Source of the DNA: Escherichia coli
GTDB taxonomy: Bacteria > Pseudomonadota > Gammaproteobacteria > Enterobacterales > Enterobacteriaceae
Assembly: GCF_011045215.1 (NCBI RefSeq)
Contig: NZ_CP049201.1
Direction: 5' to 3' (one strand)
DNA length: 64,000 nucleotides
Shown: piece by piece, positions 9,572 through 30,790 of the stretch
Layout of the letters: the number at the start of each line of letters is the position of its first letter
Position numbering within the stretch: the first letter of the stretch is position 1
Notes under the pieces: generated by a model
Seen by the model: the letters and a program-made list of their open reading frames with translations, nothing else
The model's database searches: none
Told to the model about the DNA's origin: nothing
Made by a program: the position numbers and the translations under genes

Positions 9572-10195
9572 TCACATTTCCTGGTTAGGTTTACGGGTGG
9601 TTCCCCCGCTGTCGCCAGGGTGATCATGAGTATTATAAATTTCGCGAATTTTACTCATGCTGCCGGTTTTATCGGTGATCTCCTGTGAGGCACCGATATT
9701 GCCCAGAACCTGCGTATCGGCATTAATCTTCGTTTCTCCCTGCACAGTCAGGGTATCCGTGATTTCCACCGGACCGTCCAGCGTTCCCCTGCCGGTGATT
9801 TTATAGCTGCCGCTTTCAGCCAGCGTGATGGACAGGGCATTGGCTTTACGGTCGTAACGGATTTCCGTTCCGGTATCAAACAAAATAACATGCTCGTGTT
9901 CACTGCCCGCCGGTACAGGAATGGCGTCAATATTCGCCCCCGGATACACACGACCGTTACGCAGATCGCCCGCCTCCGATATCACCGTGACCGCATCTCC
10001 TGGTGCCGGGTAATTACTGACCTGCATGTAACGCCCGGACTGCATCTGAATCCAGGGCAACGGCGGCGAAAGCACATCTCCGATATCCACCCGAACCATC
10101 ACCGGGTTACCCGGGATCACCTCTTCCACCACGCCGCGACGGATCATGTCCGCCACCCTGCGGCGTAACTCTGCCACTTCATCCGCCAGACTCAT
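9572..10195 (-). CDS. Baseplate spike/assembly protein V
   Basis: Start MSLADEVAELRRRVADMIRRG... resembles P2 gpV N-terminus; ORF track 5' extension to 10354 unlikely to be coding. Confidence 0.75.
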   Translation of the reverse strand: MSLADEVAELRRRVADMIRRGVVEEVIPGNPVMVRVDIGDVLSPPLPWIQMQSGRYMQVSNYPAPGDAVTVISEAGDLRNGRVYPGANIDAIPVPAGSEHEHVILFDTGTEIRYDRKANALSITLAESGSYKITGRGTLDGPVEITDTLTVQGETKINADTQVLGNIGASQEITDKTGSMSKIREIYNTHDHPGDSGGTTRKPNQEM

Positions 10196-10711
10196 CGCCG
10201 GTGCCCTCCGCTTTCCAGATAAGACGATAATCCTGCACATGCTTTTTACCGGTTTCCGGTACTTTACCCAGCCAGACTTCCTGTAACGGCACACCTGCCG
10301 GAGCCGCAAACGGATCTTCGCCGACCGGAATGTCCTGTTCAAAAGAGAAAGCAAACAAACAAGATAATAAGTTGAATTTAAAGGAATAAAAAAGGCATCA
10401 TTTTTGCTTTTGGTACAAATTCTAGTCCGTATAAACGCGGAAAAATCCGCTAAATTAAGATAAAAAAGATGCTTAGATAGTTACTATGTTTAGCTTCATG
10501 GCTACGGGGAGTAAGTTTGCTCTTTGCTTAATCTCGGTTATGGAAATCCCCATATCGGCATCATGCCCACCAGCGTGACGCATTTTTTTTAATTTCGCGG
10601 GTATAAAAATTTGACGAGGCGGGCGGTCCCATAAGCAATGGGGTGTAGGGATTCCGATCCCCCTGGGGGGGGTATTAAACACCCACCCTATTTAAATACC
10701 GTCTTTTTTGT

Positions 10712-10757
10712 CACTGTGTGTCACTGGTTGTCACTCTCCGTCACGGTATGCCACCAT
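10712..10757. repeat. Clustered GTCAC(T) direct repeats
   Basis: tgtcactgtgtgtcactggttgtcactctccgtcacgg: four copies within 46 bp in a noncoding stretch between tail and island. Confidence 0.6.
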
Positions 10758-10760
10758 AAG

Positions 10761-11075
10761 TTAACGTCGTAACCGCTCCGGCTTCTTCCAGTGGTAAGTA
10801 ATTTTTTCTTTCTCCTGGTACATCTGCACGCGGCGACGGTATGACAACATCTCCAGAACTCTGGTGCGTATATTGCGCATATCCACGCCGTTAAGCTCAA
10901 TACCGTCACGGCGCATCACCTCAGCCACCACACGCGCGTAATTTTCGGCTATCACGCTGTCCGGCTGCGTGGCCTCCTGTTTGCCTGCTGGTGGTCTGAT
11001 TCCGGCAGCACGGCGAATCATTTTGAGCATTTCGGCTTCGGTCATTGTCATGGCCTCCGTGGTGATGGAAAACAA
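10761..11075 (-). CDS. Hypothetical protein
   Basis: 104 aa ORF (probable start MTMTEAEMLKMI...) just downstream of island terS; no family recognised. Confidence 0.4.
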   Translation of the reverse strand: MFSITTEAMTMTEAEMLKMIRRAAGIRPPAGKQEATQPDSVIAENYARVVAEVMRRDGIELNGVDMRNIRTRVLEMLSYRRRVQMYQEKEKITYHWKKPERLRR

Positions 11076-11084
11076 TGCCGTAAT

Positions 11085-11310
11085 TGTGGCGGGTCCTTCC
11101 TGGAAAATGAAACACCGGGGGTGGCCATACGCGCAATTCTTAACTGTTTATGAAAATTTTTCGGGAAAAGTCAGATCCGTTCTTCTTCTCTGTAACTCAT
11201 TGTTTAATGGTAAAATCATCAAAAAAAGAAAGGATCTGGCAGTGGTCATTCTGGGCCCAAAATGACGTTATCAGATCCTTTCTCAGTTTTGTTCAATAAT
11301 TGCGCGGTTG
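11085..11310 (+). other. cos-like site, inverted copy (cosQ-cosN-cosB-like)
   Basis: Plus strand GGGTCCTTCCTGG..GAAACACCGGGGGTGGCCATACGCGC..TTTATGAAAATTTTTCGGG..CCGTTCTTCTTC aligns with phage lambda cos as I recall it; opposite orientation to the other two cos sites. Confidence 0.55.
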
Positions 11311-11895
11311 TCACTCAGCTCTCTGTTGCCGTAACTTCTCCGGCACGTTTCCGGTTGTTTCCATCAGATAATCTTCCAGAATGCGGGGCAGGTTATCGGC
11401 AGTTTTAGCGCACGCATTACAGGCGCGTGCTGTTTCCCTCCTCAGGCCATCGATCATTGCCGGAGTCATCGCGGGAAACTGCCTTTGCATCGTAAGGGGC
11501 AAGCTATTCATGATGGTTGAAATCTGTTGCGCCAGTTTAGACAGTGCATACATACAAAAGCCGGTATCTATAACCTCTCCTGTCTCCCTGGCGTTCTTCA
11601 GTTCCTGCCCGTCAGCCTGTGCTTTAGTGAGACGGTATCGTTCGTACTCTGTTGTGCCTGGCTGTAAATCTGATTCACCAACGGCACGTAAATCATCAAG
11701 CTCACTGCGGAGTTTTTCTTTTTCGATCTCCTTCTCCCTCTGTACATACCATTCGATCACCTGTGAAGAGTCGAAAGTCACCTCCATACCTTTTCCGCCA
11801 CCAGATACATGGGGGAGCCCTTGCATCTGCCAACGTTCAATTGTGCGCGGATCAACACCGAAAATCTCTGCCAGTCTCTTTTTGTTAACATTCAT
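11311..11895 (-). CDS. Terminase small subunit (lambda Nu1-like)
   Basis: MNVNKKRLAEIFGVDPRTIERWQMQGLP...GGGKG...LQPGTTEYERYRL... closely resembles lambda Nu1 throughout. Confidence 0.85.
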   Translation of the reverse strand: MNVNKKRLAEIFGVDPRTIERWQMQGLPHVSGGGKGMEVTFDSSQVIEWYVQREKEIEKEKLRSELDDLRAVGESDLQPGTTEYERYRLTKAQADGQELKNARETGEVIDTGFCMYALSKLAQQISTIMNSLPLTMQRQFPAMTPAMIDGLRRETARACNACAKTADNLPRILEDYLMETTGNVPEKLRQQRAE

Positions 11896-12130
11896 TTATC
11901 AAATCCTCATCAAAAACCACCTCCGACATGAAACGCCTGAAAAACGGGATTTTCCGGCGTTATGGTGTCGTATGTTTATTATAGTTAATTTAAATAAAAA
12001 CATAATGTTACATGCAAGAAGTACCGACATGCTTTTTCCCTGAAAAATTTTCATAAATAGTGAAAATCTGCGCGTCTGCCGCCCCGCGGTGTTTCTGATT
12101 CTGGAAAGGACCCGTGAAAATTGGGGCGAT
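11896..12130 (-). other. cos site of island (cosQ-cosN-cosB)
   Basis: Minus strand ACGGGTCCTTTCC..GAAACACCGC GGGGCGGCAGAC GCGCAG..CTATTTATGAAAATTTTTCAGG about 190 nt upstream of terS start, matching lambda cos geometry. Confidence 0.6.
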
Positions 12131-12194
12131 CACCACCGTTCCGGATACAAAAAAAATCGCGAGACCTTGCCAGCCTCGCGAACGTTCATTTCAG

Positions 12195-12620
12195 TTACTT
12201 AACAGACAGCAACAGCTTTTCATCTTCGGTCAGTCCGGCGTTGCCATCACCGGCTGCTGGCCCAACACATTTCGGGCTGTGCTTTTCCATGTACGCTTCA
12301 AACAGAAAAGCCGTTTTCTTTTCCTGCATCATTGCCTGGGCATCCACGGCAGCCAGTAACGTTTGTGCATAGGTTACTGTCATTACTTCAGAACCACACT
12401 CAATCAGCTTACTGGTGAACTCAGGGTATTTTGATGCCAGCGGTAACGCCTTGATACCCTCTATGCGCTGTTTATCACTCTCAGCCTTTGCAGTAAGCAC
12501 CGTTCGGGCTTCTGTCAGTGATGCGCCATTATTTGCGAGATTTTCCGCAAGCGTCGGGTATTTCTGCGCCTCAGGCAGTGCCATGATCAATGCTCTGGTT
12601 GAATTTGCTTTCTCAGTCAT
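12195..12620 (-). CDS. Scaffolding protein (Nu3-like)
   Basis: 141 aa; ALPEAQKYPTLAENL.../ALPLASKYPEFTSKL... repeats resemble the C-terminal repeat region of the prophage C protein (24914-26395). Confidence 0.5.
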   Translation of the reverse strand: MTEKANSTRALIMALPEAQKYPTLAENLANNGASLTEARTVLTAKAESDKQRIEGIKALPLASKYPEFTSKLIECGSEVMTVTYAQTLLAAVDAQAMMQEKKTAFLFEAYMEKHSPKCVGPAAGDGNAGLTEDEKLLLSVK

Positions 12621-12634
12621 AAATCACCACAAAA

Positions 12635-12964
12635 TTATTGCCCTAAAGGCTGCACGGAAATACCGGAACCAACAAAAGACGACACTTTTTTCTCGAACGT
12701 GTCCGCTGTATCAGGCCAGTTAATTTCATCGATATTAAAAACCCCGCACTTATAAACCTGTGCGCGGTTTTTTGTGGCCGTGTTAATGTCCGATATGGTC
12801 AGATACACCGCCTTACCGGGTGTACCGTCCCACTCAACCATCAGGCCCGCGCCGTTCTGCATCAGCGGAGTTCTCGCTTTAATTTCTCCGGCACTGGCAA
12901 AACAGGCCAGCGTGCTGACCAGTTCCTGCGTGCCGGAAAGGAATTGCGTGTAAGGTGTTGGCAT
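12635..12964 (-). CDS. Head decoration protein (lambda gpD-like), divergent second copy
   Basis: 109 aa; TPLM...GLMVEWDG...VYKCGVF...WPD...GSGISV pattern matches gpD. Confidence 0.75.
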   Translation of the reverse strand: MPTPYTQFLSGTQELVSTLACFASAGEIKARTPLMQNGAGLMVEWDGTPGKAVYLTISDINTATKNRAQVYKCGVFNIDEINWPDTADTFEKKVSSFVGSGISVQPLGQ

Positions 12965-12974
12965 ACGATCCCCT

Positions 12975-14030
12975 TTATTTCACTTCGACGGTAACAAAGC
13001 GACCAATATCCACGGGTACTGGCTGCGGGGCGCTGTGCGTCTGCACGTATTCAATCGCCGGATCGCCCGGTACGATATAATTTTTCGGGTAGTACATCCC
13101 CTCAGAAAATCCCTCGCGTGCCGCGTCCTGATCCATGATGGCACCATAAGCAACAAGGCCTTTATTTTCGGTATTGCCGAAAACCATCATGTTTTGTTTC
13201 AGGAAATATTGCTGCTGCCCGTTTTCGTCGTCATAACGACCGGAATAAACCACGATCGCCACATCACCGAGATACCCCTTGAAGCTGACAACGCCGCCCA
13301 AATCTTTTAGCGCAAGTTCAAGTGACGAGTTTGAACCGCGACGCGTGTCCATTAGTTCGCGGAATCGACGGAACGAGCGCAAAATACGCCAGGCTTCGCC
13401 ACCCATGACGATAATATTTACCGTACCTTCGGAAAAATCAGCGTAAGCCTCAATGTCGCTTATCGGATCAAACGTTTCGGCATCCTGTTTTGACCATTCT
13501 TTCCCGCCAGCCTGCGTAATATGATTGGTTTCGGGTAATCCCCAGTCAATTTCATAACGCTCAATGCCTTCGCCCTCAATAACGTTACGGCCTGTTGTGA
13601 TGGCATTGACCGCCAGCCATTCAACACGCGCTTTGATGGCAGCAAGCTGTTTTTTCTGGCTGTCGTGAACCATTTTTACGCGGCGTAGTGCCGGGGAAGA
13701 CTGACCATTGCCGATCTGTTCTCCAGGCATGCGCATGATTGTTTTGGTGGGATCAATAACGTGTTTGGGCTTCATATAACCCGGCGTGAACGTGTTCGTT
13801 GTGAAACCTTTGTCACGCATAACCTGGCTGCCTGACATTGGAGAACAAAACGGACTCATGACCACGTTTTCAATATCCAGCGTATCAAGTGCAATATCTC
13901 TGGTGCTGAAAGTAGCGACGTTCGGAAAGAACAACGTAGTAAAGAGTGGATTAAATTTAAATTCCGGCACATCTTCGCGCCCGATATTTTTCAGTAGCGT
14001 TGGTGTGCTTACCAGTTGCGGCGCTGTCAT
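12975..14030 (-). CDS. Major capsid protein (lambda gpE-like), divergent second copy
   Basis: 351 aa; TPGYMKPKH, NITQAGGKEWSKQDAETFDP, DTRRGSNSSLELALKDLG motifs shared with lambda E and the prophage E at 23439-24467. Confidence 0.85.
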   Translation of the reverse strand: MTAPQLVSTPTLLKNIGREDVPEFKFNPLFTTLFFPNVATFSTRDIALDTLDIENVVMSPFCSPMSGSQVMRDKGFTTNTFTPGYMKPKHVIDPTKTIMRMPGEQIGNGQSSPALRRVKMVHDSQKKQLAAIKARVEWLAVNAITTGRNVIEGEGIERYEIDWGLPETNHITQAGGKEWSKQDAETFDPISDIEAYADFSEGTVNIIVMGGEAWRILRSFRRFRELMDTRRGSNSSLELALKDLGGVVSFKGYLGDVAIVVYSGRYDDENGQQQYFLKQNMMVFGNTENKGLVAYGAIMDQDAAREGFSEGMYYPKNYIVPGDPAIEYVQTHSAPQPVPVDIGRFVTVEVK

Positions 14031-14236
14031 TACTCACCCCCATGAGGCTGATTCATACCAAGCGCAGCGCGTAAATGGCTGCGTACCATCCAGCCGACTG
14101 ACGGCTTCACCAGGCACAACGGATCAAGGCCGATTTTTTTTCCTGCCTCTGCGTTCTCCTCAAAGCGCGCATTAAGTGCGGCGATAATATCGGGGCTGAT
14201 GTACACGGATACACCGCCCGGCTTCTGTGTTCCCAT
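14030..14236 (-). CDS. Hypothetical protein
   Basis: Small ORF immediately upstream of island capsid gene; no family recognised. Confidence 0.3.
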   Translation of the reverse strand: MGTQKPGGVSVYISPDIIAALNARFEENAEAGKKIGLDPLCLVKPSVGWMVRSHLRAALGMNQPHGGE

Positions 14237-14494
14237 AAATGAGATTCCTCTTTGACTAAAAAACAAACATAACGAAAAGTCATGTCATGATTTTAATTAT
14301 CGTTGCACTTTTTGCAATATAATTGACTATTGTTGCGAATAATGAAATCATTATGTCGTGGTTTTAATCCTTGTACCACAGAGTTGTTTAGCATTAATCA
14401 CGTTAGCGGCGTGAAATCCCCCGGAACCTCATCCCGGGGGATTTTTTTGCGCACAAAAAAGCCGGGAAAAATCCCGGCTTCTGTCACTCGTTGC

Positions 14495-14917
14495 TTAAAA
14501 CGGTATTTCATCCCCGTACGGATCATCATTTCCCGCCTGTTGTTTTGCTCTGCTCAGTGCATCAGTAGCCTGCCCCTGTTGGCCTTTTTTGCCGCCCGGT
14601 CGCGCCGTTCTGGCACTGATTACACTGTCTGCGATAACCTGCCAGCTCTGCCGCGTTTCGCCGTTCTGGCCTGTCCACTGGCTTACCTGCATGTTACCCG
14701 CCACGCTCACCAGTTCGCCTTTGCGGTGTTTTGCCAGTGCGTCGGCCTGTCTGCCAAACGCCAGGACGGATAACCACATCGTCGCCGTTCCGTCATCTGC
14801 CTGGCTGCACGGCAGGGGAACCGCCATACTCGCCATCGCCATTTGTGTTCCCTTGCTGGTGGTCTTTAACTGCGGGTCAGCCACCAGCCGCCCGTAAGCT
14901 GCTATCTGTGCTGTCAT
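14495..14917 (-). CDS. ssb: Single-stranded DNA-binding protein
   Basis: 140 aa with Gly/Gln-rich linker and acidic C-terminal tip ...DDPYGDEIPF typical of SSB. Confidence 0.7.
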   Translation of the reverse strand: MTAQIAAYGRLVADPQLKTTSKGTQMAMASMAVPLPCSQADDGTATMWLSVLAFGRQADALAKHRKGELVSVAGNMQVSQWTGQNGETRQSWQVIADSVISARTARPGGKKGQQGQATDALSRAKQQAGNDDPYGDEIPF

Positions 14918-15165
14918 GCTGTCTGCTCTCCGGTTTTAACGTTGATGGTTGTCACCTGTTCCGCTTCGGCAATCTCCCGCTCTGTCAGCGTGGCAAAGTT
15001 TGCCGCCGCTGTGGTCATGAATGCGCTTATCAGTTCGGGATGTGCTTTTGCGTATCCTTCTCCGGCATGGCGGTCTATTGTTCTGATTGCCACCTTTAAG
15101 GCGTGCTCTGTCATGTCTAACGCTTTATATTTTGGCGCTGTCTTATCTCTGGTTTTTTTGGTCAT
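14914..15165 (-). CDS. Hypothetical protein
   Basis: 83 aa ORF between replication gene/iterons and ssb. Confidence 0.4.
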   Translation of the reverse strand: MTKKTRDKTAPKYKALDMTEHALKVAIRTIDRHAGEGYAKAHPELISAFMTTAAANFATLTEREIAEAEQVTTINVKTGEQTA

Positions 15166-15188
15166 TTCTCACTATTCCCCACTTTTTC

Positions 15189-15367
15189 GCCTCACTTTTT
15201 AAGCTCCCAACATGATTTCCAACCTTGTTTTTTTGTGATTCTAATATGTTGTTTTTCAATGTGTTTTTTATTCCTCACTTTTGAGCCTATATACAGGTTG
15301 AAAAGTGAGGGGCGCGGTTGCTTTTTGTTCAGTTTCTGCTATCCCCTCACTTTTGTGCCTCACTTTT
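15189..15367. repeat. Iteron cluster (putative island replication origin)
   Basis: CCTCACTTTT at 15189, 15273, 15345, 15358 plus inverted copy AAAAGTGAGG at 15301, directly 3' of helicase-primase gene. Confidence 0.55.
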
Positions 15368-16782
15368 TACAGTGGGCGCACATCATCACCGTCAATAGTG
15401 ATAACGCCGTCTCTTTCCAGCTTGTACAGCCAGCGCCGAAAGTTTTTCATCTCATACCCCAGCTTTTTCATATCATCACGCAATAACGGGATAGTGCATT
15501 TATCGCCGCGCTGTGTGCGTGAACGGATACAGCCCCATAGCGCGGCGTGATTCTCCGTCTTGTTTCCGGCCTCCTCAATGCGCTCCAGTTCAACAGGTGG
15601 GCGCGGCTTATCCACTACCACCAGCGACGTGATTAACTCCTTGTCAGCGTCGATAAAAAGCTCCACCACGCGTAAATCGTATGCGGCCTCTTTCAGTTCC
15701 TCTGCGTCCTTCATTTTGGTGCAGGAGATAACCAGGGCTTCACTGTCTGCACCTTCCCGGCGAATACGGTATTCAGCGTCCAGAGATGCACGAAATGCAC
15801 TGGAACCACGCGCCCCCTTTGTTTCATCCTTGCCGGAATGGTGAACCACCAGTACCGTGGCCCCTGTGCGTCGTTTCAGTTCGTCACATCCACGGATAAA
15901 CGCCCCCATATCCCGCGCGTCATTTTCATCATTACCGCCAAAACACCGCGCCAGCGTATCCAGAATAATCATGCGTACCGGTTTACCCGTTTCCCTTTCA
16001 ACCTGGCGGGAAGCGATGACCATTTCATCAATATCAAACTGTGCTGCCGGAAAAATCGGGCGGTTTACCAGGTACAGATTTTTCACCCGTTCATCATTAA
16101 CGATTTCCCATGCTTTGATACGACGAGGGACACCAATGCCACCTTCACCGACGACATACATCACCGAACCATGCGCCACCCTGCGGCCTCCCCAGTGGCG
16201 ACCCGTGGCAACATGACACGCCCAGGAACACGCGAGGAATGATTTATAGGAACCGCTCGCGCCGTATGTGCTGCACAACGAATTAGCCGGAATCACGCCC
16301 TTAACGACATAATCAAGCTGTGTGTCGTACCCTGCAGATCCAATACTCATTGGTAGCGTGGTTTTTCGCTGGTCGTTTTTTTCTTCCTCCGGTATCTCTC
16401 CGGACCGTCTTTTCTGGCGCTCTCGTTCCAGATATTCGCGCCACCCCTCCCGCTTCTGGCTGTGCATTCCCTCAGGGTAATAATTCGCATCCCGTACACC
16501 TGCCGCTGCCAGCTTTTGCCCGATGGCATTAATATTTGACGGCTTGATGTGGCCTGCCTTGTACAGCCGGACACAATAGCGACCATCGTCGATAATTTTC
16601 AGGTCAGCCAGTTCGTCAAGATGGCTGTCTCCAAGCCATACAGGCGGAACATTGTCGCCAGCAAGTCGCCCGTCCTGCTCCTGCCATTGTTTCGCGTGCG
16701 CCCAGGCATCACTACCCGCAAAAATAATGACTTCGGTCATTTTGTCGTGCGGCTGTTTTTTTAAGTTCGGTGCCAGTTTCAT
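15367..16782 (-). CDS. Replication protein, RepA-like helicase/primase (AAA_25-type P-loop NTPase)
   Basis: 471 aa; Walker A GASGSYKS, Walker B RMIILDTLARCF, ...VLVVHHSGKDE...; N-terminal extra domain. Confidence 0.7.
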   Translation of the reverse strand: MKLAPNLKKQPHDKMTEVIIFAGSDAWAHAKQWQEQDGRLAGDNVPPVWLGDSHLDELADLKIIDDGRYCVRLYKAGHIKPSNINAIGQKLAAAGVRDANYYPEGMHSQKREGWREYLERERQKRRSGEIPEEEKNDQRKTTLPMSIGSAGYDTQLDYVVKGVIPANSLCSTYGASGSYKSFLACSWACHVATGRHWGGRRVAHGSVMYVVGEGGIGVPRRIKAWEIVNDERVKNLYLVNRPIFPAAQFDIDEMVIASRQVERETGKPVRMIILDTLARCFGGNDENDARDMGAFIRGCDELKRRTGATVLVVHHSGKDETKGARGSSAFRASLDAEYRIRREGADSEALVISCTKMKDAEELKEAAYDLRVVELFIDADKELITSLVVVDKPRPPVELERIEEAGNKTENHAALWGCIRSRTQRGDKCTIPLLRDDMKKLGYEMKNFRRWLYKLERDGVITIDGDDVRPL

Positions 16783-17078
16783 TTTTTACCCCTGAATGCG
16801 TTAATCATGTTTTTCATTTTCTGAATGTTCGCCCGTGCCTTTGCGTTGCTGGTGGGCTGTTTGCATGGCGTGGCCTGTATCAGTGAAAAATCACGCCGGA
16901 ACTGATAAACAGGCATCACGCAGTCATAGCCGTACCCATCACGGCGGTAAGTAACGCACCGTCCCGCCACGCTTTTAATCGTTACCGTGCCGCCGTAGTT
17001 ATCCCGGAAAATATCGCCGGGGCGGATTTCAGGCCGAGCGGGGCCGCTGGCAGTAAAGCCAGAAATTTTCTGTTTCAT
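16779..17078 (-). CDS. Hypothetical protein
   Basis: 99 aa ORF, start overlaps helicase-primase gene. Confidence 0.4.
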   Translation of the reverse strand: MKQKISGFTASGPARPEIRPGDIFRDNYGGTVTIKSVAGRCVTYRRDGYGYDCVMPVYQFRRDFSLIQATPCKQPTSNAKARANIQKMKNMINAFRGKK

Positions 17079-17094
17079 GGTTTTTATTCCTCTG

Positions 17095-17294
17095 CGCGGG
17101 TCTTGTTGTGTATTTCCATAACCGCGTTTAATTCATCAATAACCGGGGTTAACAGAGTGCTGAAAGCAGAAAATAAATCCCCCCCCCTGTTCGGCATGAA
17201 CTTCGGTTAATTTAATTAATACCGCTTTCATTTCCAGTGCCCGGTTTAATGCATTCTCAGAATGAATAAGAACATCGAAAGGGATTTTATCCAT
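17095..17294 (-). pseudogene. Small ORF interrupted at G9 homopolymer (frameshift or phase-variable)
   Basis: ATG at 17294 reads MDKIPFDVLIHSENALNRALEMKAVLIKLTEVHAEQGGG then poor frame; with G8 it continues ...DLFSAFSTLLTPVIDELNAVMEIHNKTRAEE to a stop 5 nt before next gene. Confidence 0.35.
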
Positions 17295-17753
17295 GGCTTA
17301 CATCCTCCGGGAATTTTCTTCTGTAACGCGCCTCTGCAACATATTCCGCATAGTCCGACGCAATATTGAGAATCTCCACACCCTCTGACCTGTAGCCACT
17401 GGTACTGATAAGAAAAAATGCGGCTTTCATCATGTCGGCAACGCATAACAACGCATCGCCTGTATGTTCCGGTGCGCCATCAAATTCCTGTTTCAGGGCA
17501 TTAAAACGATCATCACGCATAACCCCCCCCCATTTTCACAATCAGTAATCAGGATGGCTTTAGCCTCATTCAGTGCCATATCAGCACTAAATTGCATAAC
17601 AGCCAGTGAGTGAGGAACGAAATCCCCGGCATATTCTGTTTCGCTGGTGGCGTGCTTATGTGCCCTGTCCGCGATAACAGAAATATCAATCAGCGCGTGC
17701 ATCAGCGTTTTGATGGCTTCGGCGGCTGCGTCCTGACGGGTGTTATTGCACAT
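17287..17753 (-). pseudogene. Gene split by G9 homopolymer (86-aa + 77-aa ORFs; fuse with G10)
   Basis: ORF 17493-17753 ends ...CENGGGLCVMIVLMP; one extra G in the tract at 17523-17531 gives ...GGGVMRDDRFNALKQEF... continuous with ORF 17287-17520. Confidence 0.4.
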
Positions 17754-17949
17754 GGCGCACCTCCTGACGAATACGGGCGGCGAATACCATCACGCAGCCA
17801 TCAGGAGATTGCTGACGCGCTTCCTGTTCGTTGGTGGCCTCAATGGTAATCACGCGCGGTTGTGCCGTGCTCAGGGCGATAAAACGCCAGATGTATTTAT
17901 TCAGGTTGTGCGAGTCCCGCCCTTGCGGGTGTGTGGTATGATTTAACAT
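17743..17949 (-). CDS. Small protein, first gene of leftward island operon (Cro-like position)
   Basis: 68 codons (MLNHTTHPQGRD...RHVQ) with RBS GAGGT; divergent from RHH gene across operator region; not in ORF track as a separate ORF. Confidence 0.4.
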   Translation of the reverse strand: MLNHTTHPQGRDSHNLNKYIWRFIALSTAQPRVITIEATNEQEARQQSPDGCVMVFAARIRQEVRHVQ

Positions 17950-18088
17950 AGCTACCTCGATAATCTTGCTATCGTTGGTGGTTAGACGCCCTGCATGTGT
18001 ACCACCACTGCGGGGCGTTGCGTTTTTTGATGTGCACGTGTTAAGGTGTACACCTAACGAACCAAAACATAACGCCATAGGTGTACAC
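17950..18088. promoter_or_regulatory. Divergent promoter/operator region of island
   Basis: Perfect palindrome GGTGTACACC at 18045-18054 and GGTGTACAC at 18080-18088 just before the RHH start; CACGTG at 18033. Confidence 0.5.
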
Positions 18089-18283
18089 ATGTCAACAGTT
18101 ATTAAGCGCGATAAAAAACAAAAAGGCACAGGAAAGGCCCCACCATTCCATATGCGTATAGTCCCTGAATTGAAGGAGCAGTTTGATAACGAAGCCAGTA
18201 ACGATGGAGTAAGTCTTGCCAACTGGCTTAAAGAGTTAGGGCGCAAAGAACTGCTACGGCGCGGAATTGAACCAAAGGGATAA
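18089..18283 (+). CDS. Ribbon-helix-helix-like DNA-binding protein (putative island repressor or antitoxin)
   Basis: 64 aa from MSTVIKRDKKQKG...; basic N-terminus, start right after operator palindromes. Confidence 0.45.
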   Translation: MSTVIKRDKKQKGTGKAPPFHMRIVPELKEQFDNEASNDGVSLANWLKELGRKELLRRGIEPKG

Positions 18284-18292
18284 CTATCACTA

Positions 18293-18823
18293 ATGTCGCA
18301 ACCAGAGGAGTTGCGACTCCGAAGATTACATAGGAAATTAATGATTATGGGATTCGTCATTTTCATTGCGATCGTAATTTTATCCATTTACGTTCTTACC
18401 AAATTATTTATTTCAGAAAATTCACACGACAAAATTAGAGCCGAGGCATCCAGAAGAATTGCACAAGAAGAGGCCGAACGGGCTAAGTTGTATGAAGAGA
18501 GAAAGGAATCATCTGATAATCCTGTTAATAAACAAAAACGAATAACAACACACGAAGATCATTTTTATATGGATATTCATGGTGGTCACAAATATATATG
18601 TGTTGATGCTAAGTTAGTTTTTGAATATGCAAATTTAAAACACAACTATTTTCTTCACGCCTCTCACTATTTCCCTGAGTTAGAGTATGTTTATGGAAAA
18701 AACGAACATGGGAAAATAGTTAGAGTAGATTTGTACGATAAAAAAATTCAAGCTATTAACCCCGATACTGGCGAAAAAATACCTGGTGTGAGACGTTATC
18801 TACGACAGCACAAGATAAAATAG
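18293..18823 (+). CDS. Hypothetical membrane-anchored protein (AT-rich cargo gene)
   Basis: 176 aa; N-terminal TM helix MIMGFVIFIAIVILSIYVLTKLF; markedly AT-rich; followed by hairpin+T-run terminators. Confidence 0.45.
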   Translation: MSQPEELRLRRLHRKLMIMGFVIFIAIVILSIYVLTKLFISENSHDKIRAEASRRIAQEEAERAKLYEERKESSDNPVNKQKRITTHEDHFYMDIHGGHKYICVDAKLVFEYANLKHNYFLHASHYFPELEYVYGKNEHGKIVRVDLYDKKIQAINPDTGEKIPGVRRYLRQHKIK

Positions 18824-19238
18824 CCCACCGGAATTTTTTTCCGGTTACGCTTTGCCCACCAGCCGCAAATGTGGCATTGTTGGCTATGCTCATGCGTTGG
18901 GGATAACGCGCAATTAGTGTTGAAGGGCCACCGTAGCGGGTGGCCTTTGTTTTGCCTGTTATCCGGCAATTGTGGCGCTTCGCCACACGGTTGATATAAT
19001 CCTCCTGCACAGATTCATTTTTTGCGCAGCAGGTTAATTGTTCGCAAGGGCGCTCCGGCAACTGGGCGCTTTTTGTTTTTACCCACCAGCACAATAAAAA
19101 TCTTCATTTTCCATTTTTGCAAAATTTCATGCTTTCCGGACGACTGGCCATATGTCATTTTTTAGCAGAAGATTTTGCCTTGCTGGTGGGTAGCTTCCCG
19201 GTTAACACGATGTACCGTATAATCAGCACCGCACGCGG

Positions 19239-19820
19239 TTACTGAATACGCTCACCAAAGTAAAACTCAGGCTGATATTCACGTATCAGCCTTTTTTCTT
19301 CTTCCTCCAGCTCACGCTTTTTGCGCTTACATGCCTGTAGTTCCCTCCCCTTCTCGCTGGCACTTATCTGGTATTGCTCTTTGCGACGGGAAAAATCCTG
19401 TAATGCGCCCCACGGGATACCATAAGCCCCCGTTTTTCTGATACCCGGTATCACATTTCTGAATACCCAGTTACTGAAACGATGGGCGAACGTGCCAGGA
19501 GTAGCAGCTTTTCGACTTCTGGCAATCAGCTTGTAAAAACCAGATTCAGAAACGACGCTATGATTTGGATTTCCGCGAATACCGTAAGTTAAAGTTACGG
19601 TATTACTTTCATCATCATCCAGAGCTTGCAACGCCATGCGTGAATTAGTCAGTTCCAGCGCAGCGCAGACATCCTTTGCAACAAACCACGGATCGCCGTT
19701 CAGATACACCACGCGAACGTTCACACTATCAAAGCGCAGAACGACCAGATCACGAATATCACAGAATTTTTTCACTGGACGTGCGTCACCCTTGCCAGTC
19801 ACGGCAATATTTTTATTCAT
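19239..19820 (-). CDS. Bro-N domain protein (putative antirepressor)
   Basis: 193 aa; N-terminal ...GDPWFVAKDVCAALEL... Bro-N-like; coiled-coil C-terminus. Confidence 0.55.
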   Translation of the reverse strand: MNKNIAVTGKGDARPVKKFCDIRDLVVLRFDSVNVRVVYLNGDPWFVAKDVCAALELTNSRMALQALDDDESNTVTLTYGIRGNPNHSVVSESGFYKLIARSRKAATPGTFAHRFSNWVFRNVIPGIRKTGAYGIPWGALQDFSRRKEQYQISASEKGRELQACKRKKRELEEEEKRLIREYQPEFYFGERIQ

Positions 19821-19870
19821 CGCTTTTTACCTCACATACAAAAAACCCCGCATTGCGCGGGGTATATCAA

Positions 19871-20080
19871 TCATTGACGATATTCATTAGCTTGTTTTCG
19901 TTGTCTTTCCAGCCACGATGCAACATCATCACGATGCCATGCGTTGCGTCGCCCAATCTTAAAGGGGCGTGGAAATTTATTTTTTTCATCATTCATGAAA
20001 GCGTAAAATGCACTCATTGCACCGTAGCGAAGCTCTGCCATCACGTCTTTGGTAAATAGAATATTGCCGTTAGTGCTCAT
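19871..20080 (-). CDS. AlpA-family transcriptional regulator/excisionase-like
   Basis: 69 aa, ...RRNAWHRDDVASWLE... typical AlpA/Xis HTH; immediately downstream of P4-type int. Confidence 0.75.
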   Translation of the reverse strand: MSTNGNILFTKDVMAELRYGAMSAFYAFMNDEKNKFPRPFKIGRRNAWHRDDVASWLERQRKQANEYRQ

Positions 20081-20086
20081 ATTGCC

Positions 20087-21319
20087 TCACATATTCACTA
20101 CTTTTAGCCCCTGATGACCACCAGAACGACGGATAATTCCCTTTCTGGCATCATCAACAAAATCACCAATCCATTGCATCATGATCTTACGTTGCTCAAA
20201 ATATTTTGAGCGATTATAAATATCACGAATAGCATCGCCGCTTTTATGGGCTAATGCTGCCTCAATAACATCTGGGTTAAACCCTTCTTCGTTGAGTAAC
20301 GTACTCCACATAGCCCGGAATCCGTGGGCAGTTGCAATACCATAAAATTGTCCATCTTTGAAACACTTATGACGCAACACGCTTGATATAGCTTTCCCCG
20401 GATTCTTTGGAGAAAAAAATATATAGCTACCACATTTTATTTTATTCATTTCATTTAAAATATCCACGGCTTGCCGTGAAAGCGGAACTACGTGTTCACG
20501 TCCACACTTCATTCTTTCAGGGGGAATTGTCCAGATACAATTTTCTAAATCAATTTCCTCCCATTTTGCCTCCCTTGCTTCACATGGTCGTACCATAGTG
20601 AAAATCTGGAACAAAAGAGAGCATCTTATAGAGATATTACTTGTAGTATCCCACCAGTTCAAAAATTCTGATAACAGTTCAACTGGTAATGCCTTTAATG
20701 GGGTATGTTTTTTTGTTGCAAATGCATTTCTTATTGTTGATAGCGGGTTATTTTTAATTACTCCAGAGTTAACACAGTAATTCATTATTTCATTAATTTT
20801 TGAAATAATTTTATCCAATACAGAATTACGATCAGAAAATTGATTAAGCAATGGTATGACCACAGGCGCGGTCATATCATGTATGTACACATTTCCAAAT
20901 ACAGGGATTATATGTCTGTTCAATAACTCTTCTATTGTCTGTAAAGTCGACAGTCGCAAATCACCTTTTTTCTTAAAATTAAACCATTCAATTGCAATAG
21001 CACCAAACGTCTGTAAGTGCTTTCTTTTAGCCTCGAGTCGTTTTTCTGCCCGGTATGATAACGGATCTATATCCCGTGCCAACAATCTGCGCAGATTATC
21101 GCGTTCTTCTCTGGCTTCAACCAGCGTGAAATCGGGGTATCGCCCTATAGTGTATGTTTGCCGCTTCTTCGTAAAAGGTTGTACATAACGAAAACGCCAC
21201 GATTTACTACCGGCTTTTGACACATAAAGCAAAAGCCCAAACCCATCATATAGAGCGTAATCTTTCTCTCGTGGCCTGGCGCTTTTTACCTCTGATGCAG
21301 TAAGAGGCTTCACCGACAT
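20087..21319 (-). CDS. Tyrosine integrase, P4/CP4-57 type
   Basis: N-terminus MSVKPLTASEVKSARPREKDYALYDGFGLLLYVSKAGSKSWRFRY typical of P4-like integrases; C-terminal catalytic domain ...AHGFRAMWSTLLNE... Confidence 0.9.
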   Translation of the reverse strand: MSVKPLTASEVKSARPREKDYALYDGFGLLLYVSKAGSKSWRFRYVQPFTKKRQTYTIGRYPDFTLVEAREERDNLRRLLARDIDPLSYRAEKRLEAKRKHLQTFGAIAIEWFNFKKKGDLRLSTLQTIEELLNRHIIPVFGNVYIHDMTAPVVIPLLNQFSDRNSVLDKIISKINEIMNYCVNSGVIKNNPLSTIRNAFATKKHTPLKALPVELLSEFLNWWDTTSNISIRCSLLFQIFTMVRPCEAREAKWEEIDLENCIWTIPPERMKCGREHVVPLSRQAVDILNEMNKIKCGSYIFFSPKNPGKAISSVLRHKCFKDGQFYGIATAHGFRAMWSTLLNEEGFNPDVIEAALAHKSGDAIRDIYNRSKYFEQRKIMMQWIGDFVDDARKGIIRRSGGHQGLKVVNM

Positions 21320-21433
21320 ACAAGCACTCCAATACAAATTTTTTCTAGTCCATGCGCTGGTTCCTTTTGCCAGAATACTGGCGATAAAAAAGCGAAAAAC
21401 AAGGAACAATGCACACAATGAAAAAACCGCAAC

Positions 21434-21898
21434 TTATTGAATAAGAAGAAAAACAAAAAGAAACGGTAACGAAAGATAATGATTGCATAGTCCAAAAGAG
21501 ACACGGAAAACGATGTAGTCGTCCAGCAGTCGGTCGAAGGTATCCACCTCAGCATCAATAAAAACCGCCGGATCAACGTTATCCAGCCCGAACGTGGCTC
21601 CATCAATCCAGTCAGATAAATCCATTGCCAGACAGCGGGCAAATATCTGCGGTTTTGGCACGTTTTCCGTCTTTCCGGCCCGATCAGTCACCACAAACAG
21701 ATCGCATTTCAGCGTGACCCGTGTCTGCCCGTCGGCAAACTGAGCCTTGTCCCAGCCGGGTACATCCACAAACACGGCAGGCGTCACCAGTTGCGTCACT
21801 TTTTCCGGGTACTCATCGGCATCTTCCACCCAGGGAATTTGTTTCAGACTGTCAATCACTGCCTGATGCCAGGTTCCCATCATCAATGGTTCCATCAT
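21434..21898 (-). CDS. Putative tail-completion/head-tail adaptor-like protein, C-terminus atypical at island junction
   Basis: 154 aa after Z-like gene; last about 20 residues (LCNHYLSLPFLFVFLLIQ) are low-complexity and read into the A-rich junction next to island int. Confidence 0.4.
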   Translation of the reverse strand: MMEPLMMGTWHQAVIDSLKQIPWVEDADEYPEKVTQLVTPAVFVDVPGWDKAQFADGQTRVTLKCDLFVVTDRAGKTENVPKPQIFARCLAMDLSDWIDGATFGLDNVDPAVFIDAEVDTFDRLLDDYIVFRVSFGLCNHYLSLPFLFVFLLIQ

Positions 21899-28162: not shown

Positions 28163-30115
28163 TTATCCTCCACTCAGTGCAGCCGCGATCTCTTCCATGC
28201 TCATATCATCCTCATCCTGCTCATCTCTTCGTGCCCTCGCCAGCGCTTCAAGGTCCAGTTGCCACCGCTGTACCGAAACGCGCAGGGCGGCATAAGCATA
28301 TACCAGGCAGTCGAGGGCTTCGTTGCGTCGCCCTTTTTTATCCCACAGCAGTTTCACCCTGCCGTTAACCACCTTTTCCACCAGTTCTTCCGCTACGATT
28401 TGACGCGCCTCTTCTTCCGAAAAAATGTCCGGGTTATCCGGAAAACGGAAGGTATACGGGGCTGCTTCACTTGCAGAAACCACCGGCAGGGCAAAACGCG
28501 CATACAGCATTTCCTTGACGGTATCGGAGCCCACCTCACACAAAAACACACCACGCTGGTTGCGCTTTTTGGGCATGGTGATCACCGGCTTGCCATACAC
28601 CGATGCCCCTTTTATGGGAAGCACAAAAAAAGTGCCGTGTTTCCTGGAACGCTGATACACAATGTCCTGGTCGATACCACCGGTATCCCAGCAGACGCGG
28701 GAAATGGAAATTTCAGTACCGTCAGCATGGCGGTATTTTTTCCGGATCACCGCATCAACACGTTTAAGGGTGTCCTCGTCCTCCGGTCGCCCCATGATAA
28801 TTTGCTTGTCAATCAGAAAGGCTTCTTCGCCGGGAGCCCAGCCCCAGACATAAATTTCATAGCGATCTTTCTGGGAGTCGATCCCGGCAGTCAGGTAAAC
28901 CACCCGCAGGGGAACCTGCGCATCATAGTGGCAGACTTTTTCCAGCAACAACTCAAAGCTCAGTTTTTCTGCCACGGCCTCTTCATAGGGCTCCCCGAGC
29001 GTGGTGTTAATAAACGTCTTGACACCGTTCGGATCCTTCAGCGCATCCAGCCAGTCATAAACAATCTGTACCCAGGTGGTGAACGGACTGTACGCTGTCC
29101 ACACGTGGTACGTGATTGAGCGCGGTGGCGGCATCTCCTCATCACCGGCGCTGTAAAATGCCAGGCCGTCACGCGTCCACATCCCGGTATTGTCACAAAT
29201 CCAGCGCCCGTCGGTCTGGTCAAGCTCCGACTGCCGGATCACACAGCCATTATGTTCACACAGGTAATACACCGTTTCCGGTTTACCCTTCTCCCATTTC
29301 AGGCCAAAGGTTGTCGCATCATCGCCAAACTTAAGATACTGGGCTTCACCACAATGAGGGCATGGCACATAAAACCGCATAAAATGTGCAGATTCGTTCG
29401 CGGCTTTTTCAATCTGACAGGAACCTTTAATTTTTGGCGTTGAGCCGCGTATGGATTTAGGCCATACCGAACCTTCGATACGTTTATCGCCAAGCAGCGT
29501 TGGCGAGCCTTCCTTTTCCACATCCGGTTCAAACGAGGAGAGTTCGTCATAGCAGACCACATCCACTGATTTTTCACGGTAGTTTTTAGCAGCGGCACCC
29601 CCCAGGCACCAGAACCCCACGCCGGAGGAGAAACGCTTCAGGGTGAGTGTGTTGTCACGATGTTTTCTGCCCAGCCATGGCGATAACGCTTTAAGGCTGG
29701 GGACATCCCGGAGCGTTGCTTCCACATGCGCTTTCATAAAATCTTCAGCTGCGGAATCTGTCGGCTGGAAGAGCAGGCTGTTACGGGATTTATGCTCAAT
29801 AAAATACCCGACCACGCCCAGCAGCATTTTGGTGTAACCCACACGCGCCGATTTAATCAGATTAACAGTGCGGATCCTGTCGTGCCCCATGCTGTTCATA
29901 ATGGCGACCTGGAACGGCAGTGTTTTCCATTCCCCATCACCGTATGACGATTCTTTAGGCAGATAATAATTTTGATCAGCCCATTCAACTGCCGTCATCG
30001 GTACAACCCTGACCAGAGGCTGCAGCGCAACTGAAACAGCAGCCATCATATTATTCAGCTGTAGTTCGGATATATTCATCGAGTAACTCCGGCAATTTAT
30101 CCCCTGTCCGCGCAC
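28163..30115 (-). CDS. Terminase large subunit (lambda gpA-like)
   Basis: 650 aa; ATPase and nuclease domains, lambda-A length, overlaps terS end. Confidence 0.92.
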   Translation of the reverse strand: MRGQGINCRSYSMNISELQLNNMMAAVSVALQPLVRVVPMTAVEWADQNYYLPKESSYGDGEWKTLPFQVAIMNSMGHDRIRTVNLIKSARVGYTKMLLGVVGYFIEHKSRNSLLFQPTDSAAEDFMKAHVEATLRDVPSLKALSPWLGRKHRDNTLTLKRFSSGVGFWCLGGAAAKNYREKSVDVVCYDELSSFEPDVEKEGSPTLLGDKRIEGSVWPKSIRGSTPKIKGSCQIEKAANESAHFMRFYVPCPHCGEAQYLKFGDDATTFGLKWEKGKPETVYYLCEHNGCVIRQSELDQTDGRWICDNTGMWTRDGLAFYSAGDEEMPPPRSITYHVWTAYSPFTTWVQIVYDWLDALKDPNGVKTFINTTLGEPYEEAVAEKLSFELLLEKVCHYDAQVPLRVVYLTAGIDSQKDRYEIYVWGWAPGEEAFLIDKQIIMGRPEDEDTLKRVDAVIRKKYRHADGTEISISRVCWDTGGIDQDIVYQRSRKHGTFFVLPIKGASVYGKPVITMPKKRNQRGVFLCEVGSDTVKEMLYARFALPVVSASEAAPYTFRFPDNPDIFSEEEARQIVAEELVEKVVNGRVKLLWDKKGRRNEALDCLVYAYAALRVSVQRWQLDLEALARARRDEQDEDDMSMEEIAAALSGG

Positions 30116-30560
30116 ACTGATTCGCGCCTTTTGCGATAAGGGTTTTCAGATAATCGATATGACGCGGGGTTAAATCCGGGAACTGTCGCTGCATGGATAA
30201 AGGAATGGAATCAAGCGTACTGGACAATGCCATCGCCAGTTTGCTGAGAGCGAAAACGCAGAACCCAGAATCAATGAGCTTGCCTTCGGTTACCTGATTT
30301 TTTAATTGCTGTGCTATTGCCTGTTCTTCAGTCAATTTCCATCTGGCGATAAGTAATTTTTCTTCGTAATCGCTATTTCCATCGTCATCAGTATCGCTTC
30401 TTCCTTTGCGTTTAAGGTATGAAATATAAAAATATCGCCAGGCATCAATATCGTATTCACCACGCTTTCGATTTTTTGGCGCTCCCGGGTGCTTCTGAAG
30501 ATCCCGCAACCAGCGTTCAGTTATACCAAGATGCTCGGCTACCTCCGCCTGCGTTGCCAT
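30051..30560 (-). CDS. Terminase small subunit (Nu1-like C-terminal half, divergent N-terminal HTH)
   Basis: 169 aa; C-terminal ...GKLIDSGFCVFALSKL...LSMQRQFPDLTPRHIDYL... similar to island TerS and lambda Nu1. Confidence 0.8.
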   Translation of the reverse strand: MATQAEVAEHLGITERWLRDLQKHPGAPKNRKRGEYDIDAWRYFYISYLKRKGRSDTDDDGNSDYEEKLLIARWKLTEEQAIAQQLKNQVTEGKLIDSGFCVFALSKLAMALSSTLDSIPLSMQRQFPDLTPRHIDYLKTLIAKGANQCARTGDKLPELLDEYIRTTAE

Positions 30561-30790
30561 ACACCCTCTTTAGCTGTTCACTTTACACTCAACTCCGTTT
30601 TTGCCGCTATTTTCCCACAAACTGGTCGGACTTCCGGTTTTCTTGATAACTAAAAACAATATAATCAATTGGTTAGATAATTAAAAAACCGGAAGTGGAA
30701 CTCGAAAAATTTTCATAAATAGCGCGTTTTTGCGCGTCCTACGACCCCCGGTGTTTCAGATTCCGGAAAGGACCCGCGCAAATGAGAGCA
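30561..30790 (-). other. cos site of prophage (cosQ-cosN-cosB)
   Basis: Minus strand GGGTCCTTTCCGGAATCTGAAACACCG GGGGTCGTAGGA CGCGCAAAAACGCGCTATTTATGAAAATTTTTCG, about 180 nt upstream of terS. Confidence 0.6.

Follow-up and report, generated by a model that had tools for sequence, protein, structure and literature searches.

In the lambda paradigm of cos packaging, TerS reads the R sites of cosB and TerL cuts cosN (PMC9026076). Functional cos sites are known from E. coli PICIs; in these, cosQ and cosN resemble those of the helper while cosB differs (PMC6092414, PMC6739421, PMC9026076), and helper-embedded PICIs (HE-PICIs) that share cos with their helper have already been described (Tommasini, Mageeney & Williams 2023; PMC10111431). 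We analysed a 64,000-nt stretch of E. coli DNA (hereafter, the window), in which an island of this kind lies within a prophage and carries a terS gene bracketed by two cos sites.

The island and its resident prophage

The borders of the island were set by BLAST against the uninterrupted prophage of E. coli C5. The features needed here are given below.

10349-21489, minus strand: satellite island (helper-embedded PICI), 11.14 kb
10337-10348: att core copy at the island end distal to int, GTTCAAAAGAGA; exact shared core CAAAAGAGA
21490-21501: att core copy at the int end, GTCCAAAAGAGA
21490-21898 (5' part) and about 10179-10348 (3' part), minus strand: interrupted prophage late gene (phrog_1072, function unknown)
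12195-14030, minus strand: island capsid cluster, three homologues of helper head proteins
12975-14030, minus strand: island major capsid protein, 46% identical to the helper MCP
12635-12964, minus strand: island decoration protein, 36% identical to the helper decoration protein
12195-12620, minus strand: island 141-aa scaffold-like protein, 34% identity to the C-terminal portion of the S49 protease/scaffold of the helper

The island genes run in the order int, AlpA-like, Bro/Ant, repressor-like, DUF4222, primase/helicase (RepA), SSB, major capsid, decoration, scaffold-like, cos1, terS, cos2 and a small phrog_1561 protein, all co-oriented with the late genes of the prophage. The integrase was assigned to phrog_1, the primase/helicase to phrog_2850/906, and the AlpA-like protein to phrog_66 (Pfam PF05930, E 6e-4); an SSB is present. 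Neither the ORF list nor PHROG scans nor the annotation that RefSeq gives to a 95%-identical copy revealed a terL, portal, tail or lysis gene in the island. Protease and head-tail connector genes were likewise not found in it, the head-related homologues being capsid, decoration, scaffold-like protein and TerS only. Presence of the capsid, decoration and scaffold-like genes without portal, protease and terL suggests that the island may remodel helper capsids. The 141-aa protein and a 104-aa island protein were considered as Rpp candidates and ruled out; PDB sequence searches with them gave nothing useful.

The split phrog_1072 gene, which is unbroken in strain C5, lies between a tail-completion/Neck1 gene and a baseplate V gene of a prophage that combines a lambda-like head with a P2-like contractile tail. 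The C5 prophage is about 96–99% identical to that of the window and has no island at this place; elsewhere in the C5 chromosome there is a related island, the cos1-terS-cos2 module of which is 93% identical. E. coli SA53-3 carries the same island at the same place, in a prophage with TerS and TerL of the phage-21 class. With its size in the 10–15 kb class, terminal integrase and AlpA, primase/helicase replication module, late zone, and co-oriented location inside a prophage late gene, the island is, by gene content and position, a Gram-negative PICI with four-zone organisation in the helper-embedded configuration, and the resident prophage is its likely helper. A Mu-like prophage was also considered for the window and is absent from it; C5 has a Mu-like element, with a repressor, a Ner-like protein, a MuA transposase and a MuB ATPase, about 2.5 kb upstream of the prophage cos (locus L009, 8600-12001).

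The HE-PICI attP motif TGTATTGCnnnnTGTATTGC is absent from the 64-kb window, and the att core CAAAAGAGA had no match in the att data of the HE-PICI paper, one supplementary file being covered in part. The sole two copies of TTCTAGTCC in the window, at 10420-10428 and 21343-21351, sit about 75–80 bp and about 140–150 bp inside the two island ends, a placement resembling the arm-site geometry reported for the HE-PICI attP, with a different sequence. Near the end distal to int, at 10708-10747, there are three to four tandem 10-bp units with GTCAC (TTGTCACTGTGTGTCACTGGTTGTCACTCTCCGTCACGG), which look like iterons or a binding-site array.

Three cos sites and their terminase genes

The window contains two island cos sites, of which cos2 was missing from the first-pass annotation, and one prophage cos.

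11896-12113, minus strand: cos1, complete lambda/21-type cos of the island, by alignment to the annotated phage 21 cos and lambda
12103-12113, minus strand: cos1 cosQ, GGGTCCTTTCC, with the overhang 18 nt downstream (lambda and phage 21: 19 nt)
12073-12084, minus strand: cos1 cosN, predicted 12-nt 5' overhang GGGCGGCAGACG, placed where the lambda and phage 21 left ends align
12042-12060, minus strand: cos1 spacer block between cosN and R3 (I2 region), CTATTTATGAAAATTTTTC
12019-12034, minus strand: cos1 cosB R3, AAGCATGTCGGTACTT, phage-21 type
11998-12010, minus strand: cos1 I1 (position of the IHF site)
11962-11977, minus strand: cos1 R2, inverted
11919-11935, minus strand: cos1 R1, CGTTTCATGTCGGAGGT
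12157-12181, minus strand: strong intrinsic-terminator-like hairpin, 10-bp stem and T8, between the capsid-gene cluster and cos1
11311-11895, minus strand: island terS, 194 aa
11091-11310, plus strand: cos2, second island cos, complete, convergent with cos1
11091-11100, plus strand: cos2 cosQ
11120-11131, plus strand: cos2 overhang, GGTGGCCATACG
11144-11162, plus strand: cos2 spacer block
11172-11185, plus strand: cos2 R3
11225-11238, plus strand: cos2 inverted R2
11272-11285, plus strand: cos2 R1
30561-30775, minus strand: prophage cos
30765-30775, minus strand: prophage cosQ, exact GGGTCCTTTCC
30735-30746, minus strand: prophage cosN overhang, GGTCGTAGGACG
30704-30722, minus strand: prophage spacer block, exact CTATTTATGAAAATTTTTC
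30685-30697, minus strand: prophage R3, CACTTCCGGTTTT
30663-30675 (bp 72-84), minus strand: perfect IHF consensus of the prophage cos
30629-30641, minus strand: prophage inverted R2
30051-30560, minus strand: prophage terS, 169 aa
28163-30115, minus strand: prophage terL ORF

The first-pass annotation had described an island cos homologous to and co-oriented with the prophage cos, each about 190 nt upstream of its own terS, and this description is borne out. From the first overhang base of cos1 to that of the prophage cos, which has the same orientation, the distance is 18,662 bp, and the terS start codon lies, counted from the first overhang base, at bp 190 in the island and bp 187 in the prophage (191 in lambda, 189 in phage 21). 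An ungapped 78-nt block extending from cosQ through cosN to the A/T-rich block is identical at 62 of 78 positions; the similarity takes in the G+C-rich cosQ and cosN flanks and is thus not just one of A/T-rich stretches. Over the next 143 nt, which hold cosB, 41 of 143 positions are identical, which is the random level. The two blocks listed earlier as shared are both exact, the 11-mer GGGTCCTTTCC at 12103-12113 and 30765-30775, weak when taken alone (0.94 matches with ≤1 mismatch expected by chance), and the 19-mer CTATTTATGAAAATTTTTC at 12042-12060 and 30704-30722, with a plus-strand copy at 11144-11162 carrying one mismatch (0 expected by chance); the 19-mer, however, is the spacer between cosN and R3 and not part of cosB as had been supposed. 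That the overhangs differ was rightly claimed, and we count 5 of 12 positions (GGGCGGCAGACG in cos1, GGTCGTAGGACG in the prophage), but the 12-mers first given for them were one base off the lambda register. A near-match, GGGGCCTTTCC, at 18131-18141 was at chance level and was discarded.

The anatomy of cos1 follows that of lambda/21-type sites throughout: R3, I1, inverted R2 and R1 succeed one another before the terS ATG at bp 190, and cosN has partial two-fold symmetry about positions 6|7. Using the cos subsites of the phage 21 GenBank annotation, with the alignment starting at the first overhang base, we found cos1 to be identical to phage 21 at 35/37 positions of the spacer (bp 13-49), 14/16 of R3, 11/13 of I1, 10/16 of R2 and 13/17 of R1; the R sites of the prophage cos and cos2 match phage 21 poorly. 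Judged by this anatomy, cos1 is a genuine packaging site of the lambda/phage-21 type. A search for a nearer phage source of the cos-terS segment, by megablast against phage records, gave only 73%-identical phage-21/lambda-type cos and Nu1 regions, and a scan for sigma-70 promoters around cos found none.

Each of the three local cos sites has R motifs at bp ~50-66, ~106-119 (inverted) and ~145-166; the third copy is weaker, and its orientation is direct in the two island sites and inverted in that of the prophage. The motif of cos1 is CATGTCGGTAC, that of the prophage cos CACTTCCGGTTTT and that of cos2 CAGATCCGTTCTTC, and an R-motif scan gave no cross-matches among the three sites. The cos2 type matches cosB and TerS of related prophages, not of the resident one; an example is the prophage hosting the SA53-3 island, with its GATCC-type cosB and matching TerS helix. 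Its two cos sites thus seem to provide the island with alternative handles for packaging, and cos2 probably lets helpers of that related kind, with their own TerS, package it. Together, cos1 and cos2 bracket terS as a 93-nt inverted repeat that is 75% complementary. The cos1-terS-cos2 module is kept in 26 complete E. coli genomes and several 10–13 kb IMG/VR contigs. In one IMG/VR relative (L017), the same cos-X-cos layout surrounds a true Rpp, which matches RppC with E 7e-34 and starts at bp 101, so that there are both an rpp and a terS version of the cassette. EcCICFT073 likewise has two cos sites (PMC6092414).

In the island TerS, the winged HTH and core at the N-terminus are of lambda/21 kind, and the C-terminal half is of a PICI-specific type, to which the TerS class of the resident prophage comes nearest. 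Its residues 1-98 match lambda Nu1 with E 6e-37, residues 1-100 are 68–85% identical to phage 21 gp1, and the recognition helix DPRTIERW is identical to that of gp1; the match to RppC is weak (E 2e-3) and confined to the winged HTH. Over residues 101-180, identity to the helper TerS is 55% and 40% in two 40-residue stretches, compared with 45–48% and 25–28% to 21 or lambda in the same stretches; the best phage matches of this C-terminal part belong to the class of the helper, and a tail of 12–14 aa at its end is PICI-specific. The PICI-type C-terminal half recurs, 72–82% identical, in an O104:H21 island with a different DNA-binding domain. We also surveyed 56 related cos sites, obtained from 46 loci of an IMG/VR scan with GAAACACCNNGGGNNNNNNNACGCGCA together with the window and three E. 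coli loci, and each R3 type was found to pair with one TerS recognition helix.

The window has a single terL, which belongs to the resident prophage. Between prophages, the TerS C-terminus and the TerL N-terminus are exchanged together as a module: TerL of the window (28163-30560) and of SA53-3 (L001, 39894-42330) are 96% identical after about residue 50 and 40% before it, and the SA53-3 prophage is of 21 type in both parts of the module. Since that prophage, with its phage-21-class TerS and TerL, hosts the same island, embedding needs no matching terminase class.

A proposed packaging route for the island and its alternatives

The reading that we favour, at a probability of roughly 0.7, is that cos1 serves as the main packaging site of the 11.14-kb PICI, where the island TerS binds and recruits the TerL of the helper. 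Upon helper induction, the island would excise, restoring the interrupted helper gene, and would replicate. Its TerS would bind the phage-21-type R sites of cos1 through the N-terminal winged-helix domain with the phage-21 recognition helix, and its C-terminal half would recruit the TerL of the helper, the island having no terL of its own. TerL would then nick cosN to give 12-nt 5' cohesive ends and package the island DNA into capsids possibly remodelled by the island capsid, decoration and scaffold homologues, to be completed by helper tails. Since the R motif of the helper TerS is another one, the island and helper TerS proteins are each expected to choose their own DNA alone, as is the case for lambda and phage 21. 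The helper TerS of this genome would be unable to read cos1 or cos2; in SA53-3, the helper's own terminase could use cos2.

The earlier suggestion that one terminase could cut both cos1 and the prophage cos is plausible as far as TerL is concerned, the nick-proximal bases being shared, whereas initiation at the island cos by the prophage's own TerS is unlikely. Were the island to remain unexcised, a helper terminase starting from the prophage cos would meet cos1 after 18.7 kb in the terminating orientation, and the resulting molecule would have non-complementary ends. Termination at cosQ in lambda depends on head filling, so cutting at cos1 in an unexcised island would probably be inefficient in full-size heads.

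Several observations count against the favoured route. The presumed TerL-binding half of the island TerS is only 40–55% identical to the helper TerS and bears the C-terminal extension of 12–14 aa, so that its pairing with the resident TerL is something we infer. That the SA53-3 copy of the island is embedded in a prophage of another terminase class counts against the route as well. The two E. coli PICIs with a TerS gene that were tested in 2018 were hardly mobilised, or not at all, by their resident prophages (PMC6092414). For the capsid genes, deletion of the EcCICFT073 capsid and decoration homologues c1499 and c1500 did not reduce transfer, c1499 being without phenotype according to the authors (PMC6092414).

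An alternative raised with the original description of the site is that the island cosN core is tuned to its own TerS and that the core sequence sets packaging specificity, as might be thought from two elements that each have their own TerS and differ at 5 of 12 core positions. The 56 surveyed sites make this very improbable. They contain 19 distinct cores, which re-assort freely with the cosB/TerS type: the island core GGGCGGCAGACG occurs with three cosB types, namely its own, the GATCC type and the CCATGTCCGG type (the latter two in L022 and L048), and the prophage core GGTCGTAGGACG occurs with two. Conversely, among near-identical islands with the same TerS helix and R3, those of the window and C5 have GGGCGGCAGACG, and those of SA53-3, L026 and L032 have GGTACGTGTACG. 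Between the C5 and window prophages, which are 96% identical around cos, TerL shows no difference beyond alignment column 60, but the two cognate cores are unlike at 3 of 12 positions. Given these findings, tuning of the core to TerS is unsupported. Variation in the overhang is limited to positions 3-9, with a mean entropy of 1.31 bits compared with 0.58 bits in the flanking columns left unfixed by the search pattern, and the bases next to the nicks are conserved. In 35 of 43 distinct related sites, position 4 is complementary to position 9 (C:G or A:T), a covariation that preserves two-fold symmetry about the overhang centre, as expected for a TerL dimer. In lambda, moreover, TerS binds the R sites and TerL nicks cosN (PMC9026076); changes in cosN are tolerated by lambda TerL, and it is the bases flanking the nicks that are conserved (PMC4669245). 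These comparisons indicate that the differing cosN interior is unconstrained or diversifying variation tolerated by TerL and no determinant of TerS specificity, and that packaging specificity resides in cosB. With 19 core types, two sites are expected to share a core in only about 8% of pairs. A bolder version, in which the overhang interior (positions 5-8, with 4 and 9 covarying) is under diversifying selection in this clade of lambda-like terminase systems and each co-resident cos element (helper cos, cos1 and cos2) has private sticky ends, we regard as quite doubtful. If it were true, satellite and helper genomes would be unable to anneal to each other, and packages spanning the cos sites of two elements, such as the 18.7-kb fragment from the prophage cos to cos1 with the island unexcised, could not cyclise; combined with the dual-specificity cos pair, this would amount to a previously unrecognised layer of satellite-helper packaging conflict.

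Two further readings concern the use of cos1 itself. It may be mainly a handle by which phages of phage-21 specificity package the island directly through their own TerS-TerL, with the resident prophage as a landing pad or a tail and induction helper and the island TerS acting chiefly to interfere, by sequestering TerL or forming mixed oligomers. Phages of phage-21 type, whose R3 core and recognition helix are those of cos1 and the island TerS, are common in E. coli; the EcCICFT073 helper has a 21-type TerS (PMC9026076), and prophages of two terminase classes are found to host the same island. We nevertheless consider this reading unlikely: the PICI-type C-terminal half of TerS is kept across islands with different DNA-binding domains (72–82% identical in the O104 island) and is unlike the 21 type (25–28% over residues 141-180), a pattern suggesting selection for a partner other than a 21-type TerL, and the window's only terL comes from the resident helper. 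The remaining reading, that the cos-terS segment is an inert relic of captured phage late genes with no use in packaging, would fit the capture of helper late genes by PICI late zones (PMC10111431) and the EcCICFT073 capsid homologues without phenotype (PMC6092414). It is highly unlikely in view of the intact terS ORF, the R3 and R1 sites that are identical in the islands of the window, C5, L011, L037 and L050 while the I1-R2 spacer varies, the recurrence of the module at many chromosomal sites, and the experimental requirement for the homologous EcCICFT073 cos sites in transfer (PMC6092414).

Comparison with described satellites and phages

The island departs from the characterised cases by its full-length TerS in place of Rpp, its complete cosB of phage-21 type, and a convergent cos2 whose cosB has another specificity. 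Compared with those of the EcCICFT073 type (Fillol-Salom 2018 and 2019; Murialdo & Feiss 2022), the island has the same size, the same int-alpA...primase...capsid/decoration...cos layout and two cos sites, and it shares with them a helper-like cosQ and nick-proximal cosN together with a cosB unlike that of the helper. It differs in having a full-length TerS of Nu1/gp1 type (194 aa) and no Rpp, a complete R3-I1-R2-R1 cosB where the EcCICFT073 type has R3 only, and terS at bp 190 where rpp lies about bp 100 from cosN. Neither an Rpp gene ~100 bp downstream of cosN nor the simple cosB of Rpp-type PICIs was found in the island. With a full-length TerS and a complete cosB in the island, the helper TerS is not expected to be necessary for it.

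The HE-PICI prototype, Eco567.11capE of E. coli NRG857c, is likewise an 11-kb PICI located in a prophage late gene and co-oriented with it, with Integration, Bro, Replication and Late zones, capsid and decoration genes of its own, and a cos that is homologous to that of its helper but differs in the cosN core (GGGCGTCAGGCG in 11capE, GGGCGGCGACCT in its helper). By contrast, the two integrases are only 27% identical, the doubled TGTATTGC attP motif that 11capE showed as a positive control does not occur in the window, and the island has as its target the phrog_1072 gene of a P2-like tail module. 11capE has no terS, and its lambda-type cosB is shared with its helper. Downstream of the 11capE cos (L056, 28060-28300) we observed the apparent beginning of a truncated ORF resembling Nu1.

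With phage 21 cos/gp1 and lambda cos/Nu1, the island has in common the order and spacing of the subsites, the R3 core, the TerS recognition helix and a terS at about bp 190. Its overhang differs from that of phage 21 at 4 of 12 positions and its cosQ-cosN spacing is 1 nt shorter; unlike in either phage, the C-terminal half of its TerS is of another type and no terL follows terS. Among the staphylococcal satellites, SaPI1 and SaPIbov1 (pac) have a TerS that redirects helper TerL, as the island TerS would do, and SaPIbov5 (cos) has a helper-like cos and a capsid homologue; the island differs from the SaPIs in joining both features, a cos-type TerS and its own cos. Capsid-forming PICIs (cf-PICIs) also have their own terS, capsid genes and cos, while the island is without terL, portal, protease and head-tail connector genes.

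The element type is therefore one already known, and current models stand, with none overturned. The variants found here are a full-length TerS together with a complete 21-type cosB, the dual-specificity cos pair, another integrase lineage and target gene, and a contractile-tail helper; helper-embedded PICIs now extend to this lineage and this kind of helper, and the cos-X-cos cassette can hold either rpp or terS. The set of related sites also offers a natural experiment on terminase specificity, in which the R3 type goes with the TerS recognition helix, the TerS C-terminus with the TerL N-terminus, and the cosN interior with neither. Whereas the characterised E. coli PICIs re-programme the helper TerS through Rpp, this island would be an example of a cos-type satellite that owns its packaging specificity outright, with a full TerS matched to a complete cosB.
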